A stretch of DNA of 64,000 nucleotides. Source: Nitrospirota bacterium (GTDB taxonomy: Bacteria > Nitrospirota > UBA9217). Where the stretch lies: contig JAKAHZ010000002.1 in assembly GCA_021814615.1 (NCBI GenBank), forward strand, positions 17,011-81,010, given 5' to 3'. The notes under the pieces were generated by a model. That model was not told the origin of the DNA. It worked only from the letters and a program-made list of their open reading frames with translations, and did no database searches. The number at the start of each line of letters is the position of its first letter. Position 1 is the stretch's first letter. Of the stretch, positions 8,134 through 38,236 are shown in pieces. The translations under genes and the position numbers were made by a program.

Positions 8134-8279
8134 CGGTGATATAGTAGCGCGGCCGGCAGCGCGCGGCAAGTAATTTCTCCCGCCCCGCCGTTTTCCGCGG
8201 CTGCGTGAATCCCTTCGGTTTTTCGGGCTGTCCGTCCCGATCCGCGATCTTCCCGGATTCTGCTGCCCGCGATTCACTC

Positions 8280-8315: not shown

Positions 8316-8690
8316 ATGTCAAAACCTTCGCGCAGGAGCCACCGAAGCGTCTCCGCGAAGCCGGACCTCCGCGGCCGCGTATGGATCGACGGGCCGGAAG
8401 GAACCTTCTTCGGCCATGGCAGGGCGGTCCTGCTCGAGCGGATCATCGAATACGGTTCGATCACGAAAGCCGCGAAATCGATGAAGATGGCGTACCGCCA
8501 TGCCTGGGATCTGGTGGACTCCATGAACCGCCAGGCAAAGGAGCCCTTTGTCGAAGTCGCCACAGGCGGCAGGGGCGGCGGCGGGGCTACGGTGACGGCG
8601 GCGGGAAAACGCACAATCAGGCTTTTCTGGAAGTTCCAGAAGGACCTCGCTGACTTTTTGAAAAAAGAAGAAAAGAAACTCAAGCTCTAA
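8316..8690 (+). CDS. modE: ModE-family regulator, N-terminal winged-helix domain only
   Basis: FGHGRAVLLERIIEYGSITKAAKSMKMAYRHAW and GGRGGGGATVT motifs; lies upstream of tup genes. Confidence 0.85.
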   Translation: MSKPSRRSHRSVSAKPDLRGRVWIDGPEGTFFGHGRAVLLERIIEYGSITKAAKSMKMAYRHAWDLVDSMNRQAKEPFVEVATGGRGGGGATVTAAGKRTIRLFWKFQKDLADFLKKEEKKLKL

Positions 8691-29909: not shown

Positions 29910-30113
29910 CTAGGACAACTTCGAAACCTCGTAGAGCATGTACAGCAAGAGACTGAAGGGTCCGATGGTCACCACAAGCGATGCGGTGGCGCTCAAGAAC
30001 TTTCGGTACAGGTCCGCTCTTCCCATTGCCCCCGGCATCATCACCGATCCCAGGAACAGCAGCTGCAGCGCAAGCGCAAACCCGGAACTATGAAACAGGT
30101 ACTCTAACTCCAT
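29910..30113 (-). CDS. Small two-TM hypothetical protein (67 aa)
   Basis: GGAGG RBS; two hydrophobic segments; downstream of a USP gene. Confidence 0.6.
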   Translation of the reverse strand: MELEYLFHSSGFALALQLLFLGSVMMPGAMGRADLYRKFLSATASLVVTIGPFSLLLYMLYEVSKLS

Positions 30114-30170
30114 GCCTTCCTCCAAAGGACAGCCCCTCCCGCAGGAAGGGCGTGATGGTCCGTCCGTTCA

Positions 30171-30599
30171 TTACATCGACTTCTTCGATACCGCCAGCGA
30201 GGCTACCTGCATCTTCGCCGTCTCGCTCTCCAGTTCGACGAACTGCCGATAATTGCCGATCACGGAGCGGAACTTCGGCGGGCAGAGCAACACATCGACC
30301 TTCTCGCTCTTCGCGAAATCGATGACCTGCTGTTCGGGGTCGCCTTCGGTGCTGTACAGGCTCGCCGGGACGCCCTTCGCCGCGCCGGCGATGATCGCTT
30401 TCGCTTCATCGATGAACCGGCCCGCCTCGGCGCGCGCCGCGTTCCGCGCGTTCGGCGTTGCGTCATAATCCGCCATTGCCGAGCTGTCGAAGACATGCAG
30501 CGCCACGACCTCGCCGCCCTTTACCCGTGCCTTCTCGATCCCGTACGCCAGCGCTTCCTTTGCCTGCAGCGTTCCGTCGTATGCCACCATGATCTTCAT
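30171..30599 (-). CDS. Universal stress protein (UspA)
   Basis: IMVAYDGT and EGDPEQQVIDFAKSEKVDVL; similar to the N-terminal domain of 28522-29319. Confidence 0.88.
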   Translation of the reverse strand: MKIMVAYDGTLQAKEALAYGIEKARVKGGEVVALHVFDSSAMADYDATPNARNAARAEAGRFIDEAKAIIAGAAKGVPASLYSTEGDPEQQVIDFAKSEKVDVLLCPPKFRSVIGNYRQFVELESETAKMQVASLAVSKKSM

Positions 30600-30651
30600 T
30601 GTCTGCCTCCTTACGAGAGATTGGTTTGTTTGCTTTCTTGACCTCTCTTAT

Positions 30652-30667
30652 AGCAGGAGGCGTGCCA
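30652..30667 (-). promoter_or_regulatory. Sigma54 promoter for the USP gene
   Basis: Minus strand TGGCAC-GCCTC-CTGCT (GG-N10-GC); TGCA-N9-TGCA site at 30732-30748 upstream. Confidence 0.7.
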
Positions 30668-30945
30668 AAAAAGGCAGCTGAAAAAACAAGGGGTTATAGC
30701 GCCGGCGCAGTGAAAAAACTGCGATAGAGCCTGCAAGGATATACTGCAGGATAAGCAAATGTTCTTGACCGGCAAAGCCATTTCCGATATTCTCGCGCTA
30801 TCGGGAGACATTGCCCGGCAGTGCCTTCTTCATCAAGACTCTCCCGCAGCATGCAGAAGAACCCCGGAAATCAAGAGACCGCGAGGTCACTGAACAGAAA
30901 CAGATCAGGAACATATCAGAATCTGCGATCCTGGGGAGGTTCGCC

Positions 30946-31359
30946 ATGAAGAGCTTCACGATCACGAGGATGATTGCAGCGCCAACGGAGAAAGTGTGGT
31001 CAACGGTAAAGGATTTCCATCGTACGCCCGGACCGGGGGTGAAGGTCGAGATGGTGACGGCCGGCAGCGGCCCGGAAGGCGCGGGCGCGGAGCGGACCAT
31101 CACGATCGGAAGCGTCAAGGTGCGTGAGCGGCTCCTGTCCATGGGCCCGGGAACAACGTTCACCTACCGCATCCTCGCCGGTGCGCCGATGAAGGACCAT
31201 AAGGCCACGGCAACATTAGCACCGAACGGGACATCGACCGAGATCCGCTGGGACGTGTCGTTTACGCCGAAGGTCCCGGGGATCGGCTGGATCGTGGCGA
31301 TGGTGACGAAGAAAGCGGTGAACCAGTACCTCGATGCCGTCGAACGGTCGATAAGGTAA
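30946..31359 (+). CDS. SRPBCC/polyketide-cyclase-like protein
   Basis: IAAPTEKVW, GAERTI, RERL and TEIRWDVSF pattern. Confidence 0.82.
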   Translation: MKSFTITRMIAAPTEKVWSTVKDFHRTPGPGVKVEMVTAGSGPEGAGAERTITIGSVKVRERLLSMGPGTTFTYRILAGAPMKDHKATATLAPNGTSTEIRWDVSFTPKVPGIGWIVAMVTKKAVNQYLDAVERSIR

Positions 31360-31538
31360 AAGGTAGACCCGAACGACGTTATCAAATGGACCCTGCTGGG
31401 TCATTCCGGCATGTCCGGAATCTTTCTTCGACATTGCTCTCCACGCCTCACCTTTCACACGGCAACTCTAGCCCTTTACCCCTCACCGTTTCATCCCCCC
31501 CTACCCGAACGGGCAGTGCTCCCGCCCCGTACTGTTCT

Positions 31539-31590
31539 GCAGTTTTTTCTTGCCACTCATAAGGGAAAATAGTATCCTCGCATTTGCAGG
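31539..31590 (+). repeat. 52-bp promoter-containing direct repeat, copy 1 (copy 2 at 32061-32112)
   Basis: Identical GCAGTTTTTTCTTGCCAC...CATTTGCAGG containing TTGCCA-17-TATCCT. Confidence 0.92.
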
Positions 31591-31696
31591 GCGCAGAAAA
31601 GCGCGTAGTCATCGCGCGGGTCACGCAAGGGACGGACGAGAGTGGTGGCGCAGGCGGAAGGTCTCCCTAATTGTCGAATGACATGAAGGAGAAGTA

Positions 31697-32020
31697 ATGG
31701 CTATTACCCGAAAGTTCAGAACAACGATCCTGCAGCGTGCGGAGTCGGATGCGGCATTCCGGCGGCATATGCTGACCGAGGCGGTCAATGAACTGCTTGC
31801 CGGGGATCTCGCCGCAGGCAAGGCCATGCTTCGCGACTATATCAACGCGACCATCACGTTTCAGCAGCTGGCGAAGAAGCTCAAGAAAACGGATAAGAGC
31901 GTTCACCGCATGCTCGGACCGCGCGGCAATCCCCGGGCGGACAATATCCTGGAGATCATCAAGATCCTGCAGGTAAATGAGCGAGTTACACTGCGGGTGG
32001 AAGCGAAGAGGGCGGCATAG
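31697..32020 (+). CDS. Addiction-module antidote-type HTH protein (orphan antitoxin)
   Basis: GKAMLRDYINATITF and SVHRMLGPRGNPRADN motifs; no intact toxin upstream. Confidence 0.85.
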   Translation: MAITRKFRTTILQRAESDAAFRRHMLTEAVNELLAGDLAAGKAMLRDYINATITFQQLAKKLKKTDKSVHRMLGPRGNPRADNILEIIKILQVNERVTLRVEAKRAA

Positions 32021-32056
32021 GAGAAACATAAACATTAAAGACCTGACCCCCGAGCG
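32011..32056 (+). repeat. Cassette-end repeat with GACCTGACCCC (second copy 32472-32512)
   Basis: GGCGGCRTAGGAGAAAYATAAACATTAAAGACC(TGACC)CCCGAGCG after both antitoxin genes. Confidence 0.88.
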
Positions 32057-32060
32057 CTCC

Positions 32061-32112
32061 GCAGTTTTTTCTTGCCACTCATAAGGGAAAATAGTATCCT
32101 CGCATTTGCAGG
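32061..32112 (+). repeat. 52-bp promoter-containing direct repeat, copy 2
   Basis: Identical to 31539-31590. Confidence 0.92.
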
Positions 32113-32199
32113 ACACAGAAAGACGCGAAAAGCGCGCAACAGCTCAGAAGAACACAACCAGAAGATCGGCGGAGAATTGCAGGCTCAAGGAGATTTGAT

Positions 32200-32481
32200 A
32201 TGGCATGGAAGGAAGTAACTGCTGAAGAACTGGCAAAGACCCTGGGAGCGAACGTAGCCGAGGTCCGGGAGAAGCAGAGGCTGGTCAAGGTGATCGTCAA
32301 GACGCGGAAAGAAAAAGACCTGTCACAGGCTGCTCTGGCAAAGAAGCTCGGGATCAGCCAGGCGCGGGTGGCGCAGATCGAGTCCGGCATAGGCACCGCG
32401 AAGGTCACATTCGATGTGCTCTTCAACATGCTTGTCGCCCTGGGGCTGGACTATAAGGTAGTGACGAAGAAGGCGGCGTAG
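32200..32481 (+). CDS. XRE-family HTH protein (HigA-like orphan antitoxin)
   Basis: RKEKDLSQAALAKKLGISQARVAQIESG; preceded by a degenerate toxin-like tail ...RLKEI-stop. Confidence 0.85.
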   Translation: MAWKEVTAEELAKTLGANVAEVREKQRLVKVIVKTRKEKDLSQAALAKKLGISQARVAQIESGIGTAKVTFDVLFNMLVALGLDYKVVTKKAA

Positions 32482-32600
32482 GAGAAATATAAACATTAAA
32501 GACCCCCGAGCGTTGGTGGCGTAGGCGGAAGAAGCGAGTCTGGCGAGACATAAATATTCAATACCTGACCCTCAGGGTCTTTTTGAACAGGGATATAAGA

Positions 32601-34058
32601 ATGAAAGTCCTTTTCTTCTGGATTGATATTGGTTCCGGCCATAAGCCCAGTTTTCATCATGGGATTGCATGGATATCGGGTAGGCTCATTTCCGAAGGAC
32701 ATGAAGTGAAATGCATGAGGGTGACGCAAGTGGATGATTTGAGCCCATACGGCCAGATTGTTGCAGACTTGCGTCCAGATGTCGTGGGCATATCGATAAC
32801 GACCAACCAAAGAAAATATTTGGAAACCGTAGTGGCGGAGGTCAGAAAAAGGCATTCAACGCCCATTGTCGTCGGTGGTGTGCACTGTATCCTGGATCCT
32901 GCAGATGTGATCGCGTGCGATGGGATCGACGGGGTCTGCGTTGGTGAGGGTGATCTGCCGATGTCCGTGTTGATGAGTAAGCTCTCTCGTGCCGAGGGCT
33001 ATAGTGATACTCCTTCTTTTTGGTGGAAGATTAAAGGCCTGCAAGAAAATAAGACGGAGATTGTAAAGAACGCATTAGCTCCTTTCGAGGATGATCTCAA
33101 TTCATTGCCACTTCCGAATTACTCGGTGTTCGACGCGGACGCGCTCTTAAAAGAGCTGGCCGGCTATTTCAATGTGATGGTGAGCCGGGGTTGCCCGTAT
33201 AATTGTAGCTATTGTTGCAATCACGCGATCAGGTCGGCTTATCGACGGCTAAGCGGATACTTCAGGATTCTTACTCCGTCAAATGCCGTCTCTCTTATAA
33301 AGGGCTGCATGGATCGTCATTCCGGGATAAGAGGATTTATCTTTGAGGATGATCTCCTCCTTTGGGACAAAAACTGGTTTCTGGCCTTTGCCGATGAATA
33401 TCGAATGAAAATAGGCCTTCCCTATATCTGTAACGGCCATATAAATTCTGTCGACCAAGACATAGTGAACGCACTTGTAATGTCAGGATGCAGATCTGTT
33501 ATGCTTGGCCTGGAAAGCGGAGATGAAGAACTACGTGCTACGCTCTTGCGACGCCACTACAGTAATGAAAAGGTTATGGCTGTAGCCAACCTATTTCATA
33601 AAAGTGGCATTCAATTTTTTACCTACAATATTTTCGGTTTTCCTTTTGAGACAAAAGAACAGATGGCGCGCACAGTGCAGATCAATACTGCAATCAGACC
33701 TCATTCCGGACAGGCGTTCTTTTTCTATCCTTATCCAGGAACTGATTTATATAATCTCTGCAAAGAGCATAATTTGCTTAATCGTTCCGAAATGGAATCA
33801 GTTTCAGGATATCGCGAAAAGCCAACGATTAGATTAACTAATTGCAGCATCGAAGACTGTATACGTCAACACAACACGCTGCAGCTATACTTCATTTCTC
33901 GCAGATTTGCAAGAGTGTTGAGTCTGGATAGTAAACTGCTGGACAAAACGATCCATTCGTTATTAATGATATATCCCTCCTTCCTTGTGAGGTTGTTCTC
34001 CAAAGAAAATGTTATTAAAAAGGTTCTTCGATGGATCCAATACAGATTCTTGAGATAA
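32601..34058 (+). CDS. Cobalamin-binding radical SAM protein
   Basis: B12-binding region (VGGVH, VGEGD), SRGCPYNCSYC, FEDD, GLESG and PYPGT; AT-richer than flanks. Confidence 0.92.
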   Translation: MKVLFFWIDIGSGHKPSFHHGIAWISGRLISEGHEVKCMRVTQVDDLSPYGQIVADLRPDVVGISITTNQRKYLETVVAEVRKRHSTPIVVGGVHCILDPADVIACDGIDGVCVGEGDLPMSVLMSKLSRAEGYSDTPSFWWKIKGLQENKTEIVKNALAPFEDDLNSLPLPNYSVFDADALLKELAGYFNVMVSRGCPYNCSYCCNHAIRSAYRRLSGYFRILTPSNAVSLIKGCMDRHSGIRGFIFEDDLLLWDKNWFLAFADEYRMKIGLPYICNGHINSVDQDIVNALVMSGCRSVMLGLESGDEELRATLLRRHYSNEKVMAVANLFHKSGIQFFTYNIFGFPFETKEQMARTVQINTAIRPHSGQAFFFYPYPGTDLYNLCKEHNLLNRSEMESVSGYREKPTIRLTNCSIEDCIRQHNTLQLYFISRRFARVLSLDSKLLDKTIHSLLMIYPSFLVRLFSKENVIKKVLRWIQYRFLR

Positions 34059-34076
34059 TCGGCCTTTCAGAGCGAA

Positions 34077-34147
34077 AGGCCTCAGGGTCCTGCGGTTTGA
34101 CATTTTGTCTTACGAGAACCAATAGGTTCCTCACCTTCCCCCCACCC
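34077..34147 (+). repeat. About 70-bp direct repeat (copy 2 at 34480-34554)
   Basis: AGGCCTCAGGGTC(AGGTC)CTGCGGTTTGACATTTTGTCTTACGAGAACCAATAGGTTCCTCACC. Confidence 0.9.
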
Positions 34148-34158
34148 AGGGACGGTCT

Positions 34159-34228
34159 GGGGTCAGGCTTCAGAATTAGTATTTGAGCAGATATTATGAT
34201 GAGAATATGAATATTGAAGTCTGACCCC
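34159..34228. repeat. REP/REPIN-like 70-bp inverted repeat
   Basis: GGGGTCAGGCTTCA...TGAAGTCTGACCCC with an AT-rich interior. Confidence 0.75.
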
Positions 34229-34237
34229 AAACGGACT

Positions 34238-34477
34238 CGGTTCCGCTTTTCTTCGCAGCAACCCCACCGACAGCACCGCTACCCTGGGGGAAGATTCGCG
34301 TCCTGCAGCAGCTTCCTTCCTTCATCAAATACGTGTATAATTTGGAAGGCCTCTATGCCGCTGGATTGCCTGCGGACCCGGAAACCACACGGGCAATTCC
34401 GATCCGGAGCAATGGTCGTGTTCAACGGAGGAATGATCCGGTGAAATCCGAAACAAGCACCTGGTTTACCTTTTATG
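34238..34477 (+). repeat. 240-bp direct repeat of 38794-39033 (promoter plus truncated gene start)
   Basis: Near-identical sequence including TGTATAAT, GGAGGA RBS and the first ~12 codons of the 38997 CDS. Confidence 0.92.
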
Positions 34478-34537
34478 GGAGGCCTCAGGGTCAGGTCCTG
34501 CGGTTTGACATTTTGTCTTACGAGAACCAATAGGTTC

Positions 34538-34704
34538 CTCACCTCCCCCCACCCGGTTCCTCCTTTCTCCTCAGCAGCCCCACCGGCAGCACTGCTATCC
34601 ACAGCATCACCACCCCCAGCATCATCCGCGTTCTCTGCACTCTCGGCGAATAACGTTGCACGGCTTTTGACGTCCTCTGTTTTTCTCTGTGATCTCTGTG
34701 GCAA
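34538..34704 (+). repeat. Dispersed ~160-bp repeat (also 48438-48594; partial copies at 38778 and 34238)
   Basis: CTCACCTCCCC..CCCGG.TCC.CCTTTCTCC.CAGCAGCCCCAC.G.CAGCAC.GCT...CTCTGTG..CTGTGGCAA. Confidence 0.85.
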
Positions 34705-34711
34705 GGATTTC

Positions 34712-34729
34712 CCCCTACCCGTTCGGGTA
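34712..34729. repeat. 18-bp palindrome-containing direct repeat (copy at 35670-35687; variant 31498-31513)
   Basis: CCCCTACCCGTTCGGGTA occurs exactly twice. Confidence 0.8.
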
Positions 34730-35211
34730 ATACCCATCCCACCCGGTATCCAGTACATTACTTCACATCACGAACCCGCGAATTGCGAGCGGGAGATAAT
34801 TCCATGCCTATATCTCTTTTTAGATATGTCGACGTATTTGGTTATCCGGAGTCCGATCCGGCCACGGTTCTGGAGATGTTGTCGCAGTTCGAAGGGGAGA
34901 AACATCATTCATCCCCGCACTATATCTTTCGAAGGCCGTCTACTGAAAAAGGTGATACACGGAAATCCTCGGCAGATTCTGCGGTATCATTCTTCCCAGC
35001 CGACCCTGGAATCTAGCTGCCTTCCTTCCGACGTTTTATCGGCCTGTCTACGCACTATCGATAAGCCATCATTCTTTCTATGTCTGCTCAAATAAAGCAC
35101 AGACGATTAGTTCGTCGTTGCAGAAAGGAGCAAATAAAATGGTCAATCACAAAATATATTGACATTGGGTAATCTCGACCGTAATATCATTGCTGCGACG
35201 CCCAAACAATC

Positions 35212-35628
35212 ATGGCCTCTATTCCTGTAAAACTTCTTCATTCTCCTTGTCAGTCCTTCGAGGCCCGTCTCGCTCCCGAGACCGGATCAGCCTGGGATAT
35301 ATCTCACGCGTCGCTCGCGCTGAACGGTTTGTCCTTCGGTAATCGCCGGTTCGGCTGGCATGGCGCCTGGTCGTCCTGTTCGCGCTACTTCATGATAAAC
35401 GAGTGGCTCAATGTGCACACCGCCAGATGCCCGGACATGCAGCTACTGGTCATCGATGTCCACGAAGGGAAGGAGTCCATTGTCGAAAAGGTCAGCTCTG
35501 GATTCATTGAACCGATGGGCTTCCGAGATGAAGAAATAAAGTACTGCAAAATCGCATCTGGCATTGGCAATCGTTCTGTTCACCATCTCCCTGTAAGCGC
35601 TCTCACCGAATGGCGCGTTGTTCGTTAG
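35212..35628 (+). CDS. Hypothetical protein
   Basis: 138-aa ORF with beta-rich pattern (WSSCSRYF, QLLVIDV); TTGACA-17-TAATAT promoter at 35159-35187. Confidence 0.5.
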   Translation: MASIPVKLLHSPCQSFEARLAPETGSAWDISHASLALNGLSFGNRRFGWHGAWSSCSRYFMINEWLNVHTARCPDMQLLVIDVHEGKESIVEKVSSGFIEPMGFRDEEIKYCKIASGIGNRSVHHLPVSALTEWRVVR

Positions 35629-35810
35629 CATCGAACACGCGCCAATTTCTTTCCCCAGTTCATTTTGCACCCCTACCCGTTCGGGTACAATCGGGGTATT
35701 GACCCTCTAGATCGTTTCTGTTTTAATTGATTTCATCATGAATATGTCAGTCGAGATGCACTTCGTTGCAGCATTTTCGACCACACACAATTCTTGACGA
35801 GGAGGATCCC

Positions 35811-36878
35811 ATGCCCGCGAAGAAGGTTGGTACGGCCGGAGCGAAGCAGCGCCAGCGTCTTGTCAAGAAGCACGGAGTCACGACCAGTGAGAACGACAAC
35901 CTCTCGAAGGGAATGTCGAGCCTCGTCCCGAAGGATTACCGGGATTCCGGTCGTTTCATCGACAGCGTTCAGTGGAACCTTGAGTGGTTCGGCGCGGCCA
36001 AGTCGCGCGAGAAGGACAAGCGGCGGTTCGATCTCGTGGTCGACATCCTGGCCACGCTGAACAGCGACCTCTTCGTACTCCAGGAAGTCGCCGGCCCGTC
36101 CGAGGACGGCCGGTATCCCGGGATCATGGACAGCGTAGCCGAGGAGCTGACCAGACGCGTCGCCGGGGATTACCGCGTCGCCTATACCAATACCGGCGGG
36201 GAGCAGCGCGTGGCCATGATGTGGGACAGCGACTGGCTCCGTTCCAAGAGCGAGGTTGCAGAGCTGTTCGAGAGGGGACACTATGCCGGCAATAAAAAGA
36301 AGGACCCCTTCGCAGGTCGGACCCCGCTCCTGGGCTATTTCTCCCTCCGGATCCCTTCGGGCAAGAAACAGGAGCCTGGCGCCGACCGGTTCGACTTTCA
36401 GAACCTCGGCGTTCACTTGAAGGCAATGGAAGAGGGTGCAGCGCAGCGGCTCGAATCAGCCGGGATCCTCGCGGACTGGCTCAAGAACAAGGCCCCGCTC
36501 ACCGATAACGACGTCATGATCATGGGTGATTGGAACGTCCCGCCGGACGCCGCCTGCTGGAAGCCCTTCCACGACATGGAGAGGGCGGACACCAACGTCC
36601 ACTTCACCGACATCAACGACCAGAGCGACTTCTCCTATCTCTGGCACGCGAACCGCGACCAGAAGTTCGTGTCGCGCATTGATCTGACCGTCATGAGCCT
36701 GTCCTCGGAGACGGAGTATAAGATGGCCGGCAGGGTTGTCCGCTGGAAACCGATCCAGGACGCCATCAAGGAATCGAAGAACATCACGGACAAGAAGGTG
36801 AAGGACGTGATGAAGGAGCTCAAGGACACCATCAGCGATCACATGCCGACGATTAGCAGGTTCTCCATTGCAAAATAA
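35811..36878 (+). CDS. Endonuclease/exonuclease/phosphatase (EEP) family protein
   Basis: QWNLEWF, LQEV, VHLKA, MGDWN, RID and SDHMP motifs; GAGGAGG RBS. Confidence 0.9.
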   Translation: MPAKKVGTAGAKQRQRLVKKHGVTTSENDNLSKGMSSLVPKDYRDSGRFIDSVQWNLEWFGAAKSREKDKRRFDLVVDILATLNSDLFVLQEVAGPSEDGRYPGIMDSVAEELTRRVAGDYRVAYTNTGGEQRVAMMWDSDWLRSKSEVAELFERGHYAGNKKKDPFAGRTPLLGYFSLRIPSGKKQEPGADRFDFQNLGVHLKAMEEGAAQRLESAGILADWLKNKAPLTDNDVMIMGDWNVPPDAACWKPFHDMERADTNVHFTDINDQSDFSYLWHANRDQKFVSRIDLTVMSLSSETEYKMAGRVVRWKPIQDAIKESKNITDKKVKDVMKELKDTISDHMPTISRFSIAK

Positions 36879-36956
36879 CTTATGAGCAGAATCCAATACA
36901 GATCAAAAACAGATGAGGTCTTCGTACGACCTGTCAATGTAGAAGAGGAGATAATT

Positions 36957-37436
36957 ATGCAACAGCAGATTGAACAGATAGAAATTCCAGCAGAAGAAAT
37001 TGAGAAAGAAACCAAAGCAGCAGGGGAATCATCACTCGCTGAAAAGATCGTACAACAGAAATATCGTCAGTATTTGAAAAACAGCCGGATGTACAAAAAG
37101 CTGTATTATTCGACTCGTCTTTTGGCAGCATTATCCGCTGGGCTCTTGCCATTCGTCGTTACGACGAAACCTTCGTTAGCTACTGCCCTATCAATAGTAA
37201 TTGTACTTTGTGCTGTCACTGACACTGTGTTCGATCCAAGAAGCAAATGGAGGCTTTATTCTAAAGCAACAGATCTTCTTGCTGTTGAAATGATTAAGAG
37301 CCGAGGTGAATATGAAAAATATCAAAGGAATCTCGAAATACTGCTGGCCACCGAGGGAAAAGAGTTAGCCGGTTTGAAAGGGTTGGAAGAGATACTGCAA
37401 AGCATGCAGAAGGGGCAAAAAAATCCAACTCCTTAG
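36957..37436 (+). CDS. Two-TM SLATT/DUF4231-like protein
   Basis: Helical N-terminus, two TM helices, then KWRLYSKATDLLAVE; AT-rich; alternative start 36882. Confidence 0.7.
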   Translation: MQQQIEQIEIPAEEIEKETKAAGESSLAEKIVQQKYRQYLKNSRMYKKLYYSTRLLAALSAGLLPFVVTTKPSLATALSIVIVLCAVTDTVFDPRSKWRLYSKATDLLAVEMIKSRGEYEKYQRNLEILLATEGKELAGLKGLEEILQSMQKGQKNPTP

Positions 37437-37561
37437 CCTTGTGGATTGATTGAATTATTCGCTGTGATAGTGAAAATCCGTTCGCTATAAGCCAGGTGGA
37501 GCTTAAACGATCGAGATAGAAATGTCCGCTCTTAGCTTTTCATTTGCATTGAGGGGGAGAC

Positions 37562-38236
37562 ATGCCGCTCAGTAATGGCTACGGTGTCGTGATCGGCACC
37601 ATCGGCAACTACTATCGCGATCCGCCGGACAACTACGGAAAATATTATCACGGCAATGTCTACGTGAACACGCCGGCGGGGGACTATCACTGCGCGATCG
37701 ATGTCGATTCGAAGAAATCCTCGATCGGCGTCGAACGCCGGATCGTGCCCCTGACCAGCAGTCAACTAGCGAACCTCATCATGCTCGGGACCGGCTATCA
37801 TTCCCTGGCGTCGAATTCCATTTCCGGCGCGATCGATTACGTGCGGAGTCCCCTGCTGCCCCAGAGCATCACGCTCAGATGCCCCTACCTCTTCAGGGCG
37901 ATGAGAGCGATCCTGCCCCTAGAGCTGGTCATAAAGTTTCCCTGGAAAAAAGGCACGGACATCGAGGCGCTCGGTGACCTGGAACCTCTGGTCTTTACCA
38001 CGAAGAACAACGGGCTGAAGGCCTACATCTTCGGCGAGCCCTTCACGTCCGGACTCGGCGTTCACAATATCCATCAGAACCAGGGAGACCCGGCGGGAAC
38101 GACGTGGTGGGCGGAGAACGGCATCTGGCAGGACGGGTGCACCATTCTCCAGCAGAGCAGCGATCTCTATATGGCCTTTTTGAACAAGTTCACATCACAA
38201 TCCTATCTGACTGATGATAACGGACATCCCCTATAG
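37562..38236 (+). CDS. DUF2278/YukJ-family protein
   Basis: YGV, GAIDYVR, FGE, GVHNIHQNQG and NGIWQDG motifs. Confidence 0.82.
   Translation: MPLSNGYGVVIGTIGNYYRDPPDNYGKYYHGNVYVNTPAGDYHCAIDVDSKKSSIGVERRIVPLTSSQLANLIMLGTGYHSLASNSISGAIDYVRSPLLPQSITLRCPYLFRAMRAILPLELVIKFPWKKGTDIEALGDLEPLVFTTKNNGLKAYIFGEPFTSGLGVHNIHQNQGDPAGTTWWAENGIWQDGCTILQQSSDLYMAFLNKFTSQSYLTDDNGHPL

Follow-up and report, generated by a model that had tools for sequence, protein, structure and literature searches.

We analyzed a stretch of 64,000 nt from a Nitrospirota bacterium of the lineage UBA9217 (assembly GCA_021814615.1, contig JAKAHZ010000002.1, positions 17,011 to 81,010), here referred to as the window. The locus under study consists of two co-directional small genes, here named gene 1 and gene 2, flanked by an SRPBCC/polyketide-cyclase-like gene (30811-31359) on the left and by a B12-binding radical-SAM gene (32583-34058) on the right. 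Sequence comparison within the window separated it into two units, each composed of a 52-nt block, a spacer, a helix-turn-helix (HTH) gene and a shared end module (Table 1). The locus is probably a decayed pair of toxin-antitoxin modules combined with transposase-associated repeats and a local duplication of a promoter.

According to this reading two neighbouring type II modules would have stood at the start, each with an HTH antitoxin gene behind a Gp49/RelE-type toxin gene. The toxin genes of both modules, together with their native promoter/operator regions, would then have been deleted, leaving the antitoxin genes intact. The repeat behind each antitoxin gene would be a family-wide sequence of ~45 nt which also forms the inverted ends of three transposase gene copies, and one 52-nt sigma-70-like promoter would have been copied so that each antitoxin gene has one. 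The deletions may have been promoted by the repeat or by its transposase. The antitoxins may have been kept to neutralise incoming cognate toxins (anti-addiction) or as regulators.

A preliminary description of this DNA had proposed two toxin-less antitoxin genes from different HTH families, ending in KRAA-stop and KKAA-stop, respectively. The absence of toxin genes, the different families and these endings were confirmed. The proteins of gene 1 and gene 2 shared no BLASTP similarity at E<=100, which rules out diverged duplicates. Gene 2 scored 47.3 bits with Pfam HTH_3 (cut-off 23) and 42.5 bits with HTH_37 (cut-off 27). For gene 1 no curated family exceeded its cut-off in Pfam, where HTH_24 reached 20.1 (cut-off 21.9), and there was no NCBIfam match. 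The atlas clusters closest to it carry the names of HTH regulators and no solved relative was found; the evidence is suggestive of a DNA-binding HTH domain. A DNA search of 60 related genomes revealed homologues of both genes with 75-90% nucleotide identity. Copies in other genera shared 86-88% identity with gene 2 and 79-85% with gene 1.

No toxin frame was present upstream of either gene at the locus. The closest toxin relatives in the assembly were 48% and 30% identical and located on other contigs (C201 and C3, respectively). Since the homologues in relatives, 80-88% identical, are found directly behind Gp49/RelE-type toxin genes and the toxin frames are absent here, both genes were assigned as orphan antitoxins, an assignment supported by these comparisons.

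In total, 15 loci of relatives were inspected, ten with homologues of gene 1 and five with homologues of gene 2. Among the gene-1 loci a toxin frame of ~110 aa ended just before the antitoxin start in six; in one of these (L017) it continued into the antitoxin gene. Locus L013 retained only the C-terminal 52 toxin codons, and no toxin was present in the remaining three (L009, L014 and L016). An intact 110-aa toxin ending in KRLKEI-stop was found in two of the five gene-2 loci. Locus L005 carried a 5'-truncated toxin, and in L018 and L019 only 3' pieces of the antitoxin gene remained. In the relatives, the toxins matched Pfam Gp49 with 30.7 and 70.6 bits (cut-off 23.9), and toxin 1 additionally matched TIGR02683 (RelE/ParE family toxin; 106.2 bits, cut-off 62.85). 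Toxin loss in the relatives is independent and recurrent, with differing deletion end points, which indicates decay in place.

The gene order of the relatives, with the toxin first and the antitoxin start adjoining the toxin stop, resembles that of HigBA-like modules, in which a Gp49 (PF05973)/TIGR02683 toxin is located upstream of an HTH antitoxin. The locus differs from these modules in that the toxin genes are absent and gene 1 scores below every curated antitoxin model.

Homology to the relatives begins 21 nt before the ATG of gene 1 (window position 31676) and 19 nt before that of gene 2 (32181); the 21-nt extension was seen in the BLAST alignments of three relatives. It had been proposed that the spacer before gene 2 still reads like a toxin C-terminus from 'QKNTT' to RLKEI-stop. 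The RLKEI-stop part held: when the 19 nt before gene 2 were compared with the 3' ends of the relatives' toxin genes, only 2-10 of 500 shuffles reached the score, and 21-43 of 1000 in a second test. The resemblance of the upstream part ('QKNTT') to toxin genes was non-significant. For spacer 1 no significant local match to toxin genes was obtained (98-374 of 500 shuffles reached the score). The 4-codon MKEK-stop mini-frame that overlaps the gene-1 ATG is present as described.

Locus L005, which belongs to another genus, shows the same order as the locus studied here: a 3' remnant of gene 1 is followed by a stretch weakly matching the repeat, by toxin 2 in truncated form and by antitoxin 2. Based on this shared order the two modules probably adjoined each other already before toxin loss. 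Weak matches to the repeat adjoin deletion end points in two loci, L005 (E 0.04) and L009 (E 0.086), and within spacer 1 an 18-nt stretch (31643-31660) matches 32514-32531, directly 3' of end module 2. Together these give a hint that the deletions may be linked to the repeat or the transposase.

The block in front of both genes had been described as an identical promoter of 52 bp. The identity covers exactly 52 nt; the copies are 522 nt apart, the bases adjoining each copy differ and the flanking sequences are only loosely alike. The 29-nt core of the block occurred twice in the window and never in 100 shuffles. In the whole 3.49-Mb draft assembly two copies were found, both at the locus. The 63 other family genomes held no real match, the best one (E 0.008) being an unrelated lipoprotein gene promoter. 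As an exact 29-mer the block was absent from the genome_contigs collection (185,579 species genomes), and as an exact 24-mer from the metagenome_contigs collection. A gapped block pattern gave one hit inside a coding region, which we take as chance. Since the block is found at these two places only, one copy would have been derived from the other, most simply through a duplication or conversion of ~52 nt within the locus that took place very recently.

The block had also been thought of as a general module whose other cargo should be searched for. With two copies, both here, and no other cargo in the genomes and collections searched, an outcome that the description had itself listed as refuting, that idea was abandoned. 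A mobile promoter-bearing element, either a miniature inverted-repeat transposable element (MITE) or the end of an insertion sequence (IS), was rejected too, as these searches gave no copies elsewhere or with other cargo.

Within the block a sigma-70-like site (TTGCCA-17 nt-TATCCT) shows 9 of 12 consensus matches; ~0.9 sites of this score are expected by chance in the region. The block is positioned ~85-105 nt upstream of both antitoxin genes. As a predicted promoter it would drive both genes up to the hairpin at 32567-32579, the only terminator-like site of the + strand 3' of the array. The native promoters of the modules in relatives carry their own palindromic operators. Comparison of the block with the native promoters of either module was non-significant, as 153 to 900 of 1000 shuffles reached the score. 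A degenerate pattern designed to link the block to the native toxin-2 promoter was discarded as uninformative, since it had at least 120 unrelated matches in AT-rich genomes. Because the native autoregulated promoters were lost and the same promoter-like block precedes both genes, the arrangement argues that both genes are kept expressed.

On the minus strand a short GC hairpin with a T-run follows directly behind each block (31601-31617 and 32123-32137); these terminator-like sites face the blocks. Small frames within the block and antisense frames over both genes were judged spurious, since no relatives of them turned up.

A different reading of the same structures is that both genes are functionless leftovers about to be lost, and that the block arose neutrally, through illegitimate recombination in a junk region rich in repeats, and is inactive as a promoter. 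Module fragments at every stage of decay are present in the relatives (L005, L013, L018 and L019), a possible remnant is located on contig C23 of the same genome, and the promoter match is of a quality to be expected about once by chance in the region. Furthermore, promoter activity and expression are predicted from the sequence. Nevertheless, we regard this reading as rather unlikely. Both frames are intact and each is preceded by a ribosome-binding region. The dN/dS values against relatives were low (0.055-0.115 for gene 1 and 0.048-0.129 for gene 2), being pairwise estimates that cannot isolate selection after toxin loss. In addition, both genes have lost their native promoters yet share the promoter-like block at a similar distance, which is hard to obtain by chance twice.

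The shared end of ~45 bp was likewise found as described. Positions 32004-32043 and 32465-32504 are 93% identical; a 5-nt TGACC (32044-32048) then follows in unit 1 alone, and both units continue with CCCGAGCG. The motif …AAGACCTGACCC… of the end module is also present on other contigs. From an alignment of 15 copies in the genome a single consensus was obtained, GGAGAAATGTCAA..T.CAAGACCTGACCCTATAGG. A sequence-only repeat model was built from these copies and applied at E<=0.01; it recovered 15 copies in the genome and 1-42 copies in 54 of the 64 family genomes, representing all 19 genera. In the inspected loci of relatives the repeat was present directly behind the antitoxin stop at E<=0.03 in five of 15, weakly (E 0.16-0.96) in two and undetected in eight.

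Inverted pairs of the repeat, ~900 nt apart, enclose a gene on contigs C44, C197 and C166. The gene matches the NCBIfam model NF047646, 'REP-associated tyrosine transposase' (cut-off 80 bits; Table 1). On a fourth contig (C149:1-270) a fragment of the transposase gene is located between two repeat copies. Judged by these matches, the end module is a family-wide transposase-linked repeat and not a locus-specific boundary. The proposal that it forms the boundary of a cassette thus stood in one part, since it recurs 3' of such genes in other genomes; in the other part it did not, given its family-wide distribution and its tie to transposase genes.

The transposase copy on C197 seems to disrupt a further Y1-transposase-like frame (8428-8622). 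In the loci of relatives (L007-L019) both antitoxin families, although unrelated, have the ending K-A-A-stop by means of AAGGCGGCGTAG-like DNA, even where the rest of the repeat was undetected.

The presence or absence of TGACC recurs in a second pair of copies (34075-34114 and 34480-34520), and the indel fits slippage between GACC repeats. The same region has a 62-nt direct repeat (34086-34147 and 34494-34554; 98% identical with one 5-nt indel), which contains the repeat on the minus strand and ~25 more shared bases. By eye, CCCCCTACCCG..CGGG-like motifs at ~31505 and ~34715 look related.

The gene-less third copy (32535-32581) carries a palindrome, GACCC-TCA-GGGTC, and such a hairpin is missing from both end modules. 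Inverted repeats were not reported within these modules, and they folded no better than shuffles (z -0.18 for 32015-32075 and z +0.80 for 32476-32600). No Rfam family was found at E<=1 in the region 30000-36000.

Repetitive extragenic palindromic (REP) sequences and their REP-associated tyrosine transposases (RAYTs) are established (Bertels and Rainey 2011, PMC3116915; Bertels et al. 2017, PMC5581495). The repeat resembles them in that a Y1/HUH transposase gene of the NF047646 type is flanked by the inverted short repeat, which also occurs alone in intergenic DNA. With 15 copies here and 1-42 in relatives it is far less abundant than classical REPs. These numbers are close to the low-copy RAYT groups 1 and 4, for which the latter source (PMC5581495) gives only ~12-14 occurrences of the flanking 16-mers per replicon. 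Two features differ. At least three near-complete transposase copies and one fragment were present per genome, and this multi-copy pattern is insertion-sequence-like and not that of a single domesticated RAYT. Additionally, the copies behind the antitoxin genes have lost a short hairpin and overlap, on their 5' side, with the final codons of the gene.

The preliminary description had explained the two units by capture or exchange at fixed boundaries. The repeat and the block would then delimit a recombination process which captures or swaps antitoxin genes and builds an integron-like, expressed anti-addiction array. Several observations are compatible with this. In several genomes copies of the repeat stand behind antitoxin genes of both unrelated families, and their subtypes do not track the gene. 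At the locus three repeats are in direct orientation, the third without cargo, and the genome encodes a Y1 transposase for which the repeat might serve as substrate. Furthermore, the neighbouring Usp gene is only 72-75% identical at the nucleotide level within the genus; the antitoxin genes are more alike between genera than this, which suggests horizontal movement of the modules. However, the block has no further copy or cargo anywhere searched, and the repeat was undetected behind the gene in more than half of the relatives' loci. The relatives possess whole operons with their own promoters and independent toxin deletions with differing end points, as expected for decay in place. We therefore consider capture or exchange improbable.

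Integron cassette arrays consist of small tandem genes separated by related repeats, with toxin-antitoxin genes as typical cargo and attC, an imperfect inverted repeat, behind each cassette. The locus resembles them by its tandem small genes and the related repeats between these. In contrast to an integron, it has no IntI and no attC-like fold, a promoter of its own for each unit instead of a common one, and just two units. The best match of the integron integrase model TIGR02249 in the genome scored 99.4 bits against a cut-off of 265, and 14 control genomes were below the cut-off as well. An integron was rejected on the basis of the missing IntI and attC-like fold.

On a bolder view, the repeat might mark the 3' edge of exchangeable toxin-antitoxin units family-wide, the Y1 transposase or recombination between repeats might trim toxins and reshuffle units, and the block might be a portable promoter installed after toxin excision. 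If true, trimming by transposase or repeat together with a portable promoter would be a dedicated route from addiction modules to expressed anti-addiction genes. We give this view little credence.

Several points weigh against a decayed pair of modules with a locally copied promoter. The resemblance of the block to the native promoters of either module is non-significant. Its copies are perfectly identical while their flanks are only loosely similar, which would fit a very recent copy. The repeat matches at the deletion end points of L005 and L009 are weak, and the repeat stands directly behind the antitoxin stop in only a third of the relatives' loci at E<=0.03. The dN/dS values are pairwise. 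Finally, the assembly is a 94% complete draft and a cognate toxin could be located in the missing part.

The description had named an assembly artefact as a possible source of the repeated structure. The contigs assembled with k=31 from runs X1, X3 and X4 of one study, of which X1 may be the source sample, were compared with the locus. They matched the sequence without differences and broke inside the block. The junctions from the left flank to block 1 and from end module 1 to block 2 were both present in X1 and X3. In each of the runs X1 and X4 one contig spanned block 1, spacer 1, gene 1 and end module 1 and reached into block 2. The block itself formed a separate 52-nt contig at approximately double depth (15.2 versus 7.8-9.6 in X1; 11.9 versus 6.1-9.6 in X3). 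Based on these links only the tandem order, extra copies of the loop or an excised circle are possible. Compared with its flanks, the loop contig had a lower depth in X1 and X3 and a higher one in X4; contig depths cannot be ranked, so these values say nothing on excision or amplification. A further run, X5, yielded pieces at depth 2-3 only, with a gap over the block. A mis-join at the 52-nt repeat of this metagenome-assembled genome, a draft of 211 contigs, is extremely unlikely: although the k=31 contigs cannot order what comes behind the block, single contigs run from block to block, the left flank continues into block 1 and the block has the depth of two copies.

Within type II toxin-antitoxin biology, both orphan antitoxins and the notion of anti-addiction are established, as described in PMC7192599, PMC7354431 and PMC10790755. 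Like the two genes studied here, orphan antitoxins lack a toxin gene next to them and descend from complete modules; it has been proposed that they neutralise cognate toxins brought in by mobile elements. What differs is that two unrelated orphans stand in tandem, with the same duplicated promoter apparently replacing autoregulated ones. The locus is a clear and datable example of toxin-antitoxin decay, in which the toxins go first by independent deletions and the antitoxins survive. The shared replacement promoter would point indirectly to a benefit of keeping orphan antitoxins expressed. A low-copy transposase-associated repeat accompanies these modules through the whole bacterial family. 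Current concepts are not changed by this locus; it provides a useful case for the anti-addiction hypothesis.

Table 1. Features of the locus and of related repeat copies. Positions refer to the window unless a contig is named.
Feature	Position	Strand	Remarks
Promoter block, copy 1	31539-31590	+	52 nt; TTGCCA 31550-31555, 17-nt spacer, TATCCT 31573-31578; predicted promoter; identical to 32061-32112
Spacer 1	31591-31696	+	homology to relatives limited to the last ~21 nt before the gene-1 ATG
Gene 1, orphan antitoxin	31697-32020	+	107 aa, ends KRAA-stop; in relatives paired with TIGR02683/Gp49-type RelE/ParE toxins
End module 1	32004-32056	+	last codons of gene 1 and transposase-associated repeat copy (…ATAAACATTAAAGACCTGACCC…), then CCCGAGCG; repeat model 32013-32057, 31.9 bits, E 1.1e-8
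Promoter block, copy 2	32061-32112	+	identical to copy 1; own 52-nt contig at ~double depth in runs X1 and X3
Spacer 2	32113-32199	+	last 19 nt (32181-32199) correspond to what remains of the lost Gp49-type toxin gene, its conserved 3' end (RLKEI-stop)
Gene 2, orphan antitoxin	32200-32481	+	93 aa, XRE-type HTH, ends KKAA-stop; Pfam HTH_3, HTH_37
End module 2	32465-32512	+	same repeat without the 5-nt TGACC; repeat model 32474-32514, 24.2 bits, E 2.9e-6
Third repeat copy, gene-less	32513-32587	+	repeat model 32535-32581, 30.5 bits; ends in hairpin GACCCTCAGGGTC and T-run
Further repeat copy	34075-34114	-	inverted relative to the three array copies, without TGACC; directly 3' of the B12/radical-SAM gene
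Further repeat copy	34480-34520	-	with TGACC; repeat model
Inverted repeat pair, C44	6274-6317/7171-7214	-/+	gene NF047646 91.2 bits; Pfam Y1_Tnp 53.2 bits
Inverted repeat pair, C197	8626-8667/9526-9570	-/+	gene NF047646 88.4 bits
Inverted repeat pair, C166	6761-6797/7672-7709	-/+	gene NF047646 98.7 bits
REP-associated tyrosine transposase genes	C44:6305-7162, C197:8658-9545, C166:6825-7697		near-complete, C-terminal HTH

Genomes of the same genus share just the Usp genes to the left of the locus, and synteny ends there. The GC content falls from ~0.63 to 0.41-0.52 over the region from 32.5 to 38 kb. The end of synteny and the drop in GC therefore place the locus at what appears to be the edge of a variable island. 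The low-GC stretch (32500-38000) contains the B12/radical-SAM gene, an endonuclease/exonuclease/phosphatase-family gene and genes of the DUF4231 and DUF2278 families, and is probably a horizontally acquired island.

Further copies of the repeat were observed in other settings. In two loci of relatives (L008 at ~1825-1900, and L010) the repeat core (AAGACCTGACC) behind the antitoxin stop is followed by a shared sequence with a tRNA T-arm-like GCGGGTTCAAGTCCCGCCC, which could be a remnant of a tRNA-derived attachment site. The region C23:6000-9340 (L164) of the genome is rich in toxin-antitoxin genes and includes a PIN fragment, a HEPN-like and nucleotidyltransferase pair and an AbrB-like and PIN pair. 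The repeat, in several copies or variants, is found between these genes, and the 5' side of the copy at 8209-8257 resembles the 3' end of an antitoxin gene.

Upstream of block 1 a separate widespread repeat of 30 nt is present (31400-31429). It includes a hairpin, ATTCCGGCATGTCCGGAAT (31403-31421), with a T-rich tail. Matches of 93-97% identity were found at many sites in relatives and at C23:6331-6357, and in metagenome runs the contig depth of this piece was 314-372x compared with ~9x around it.

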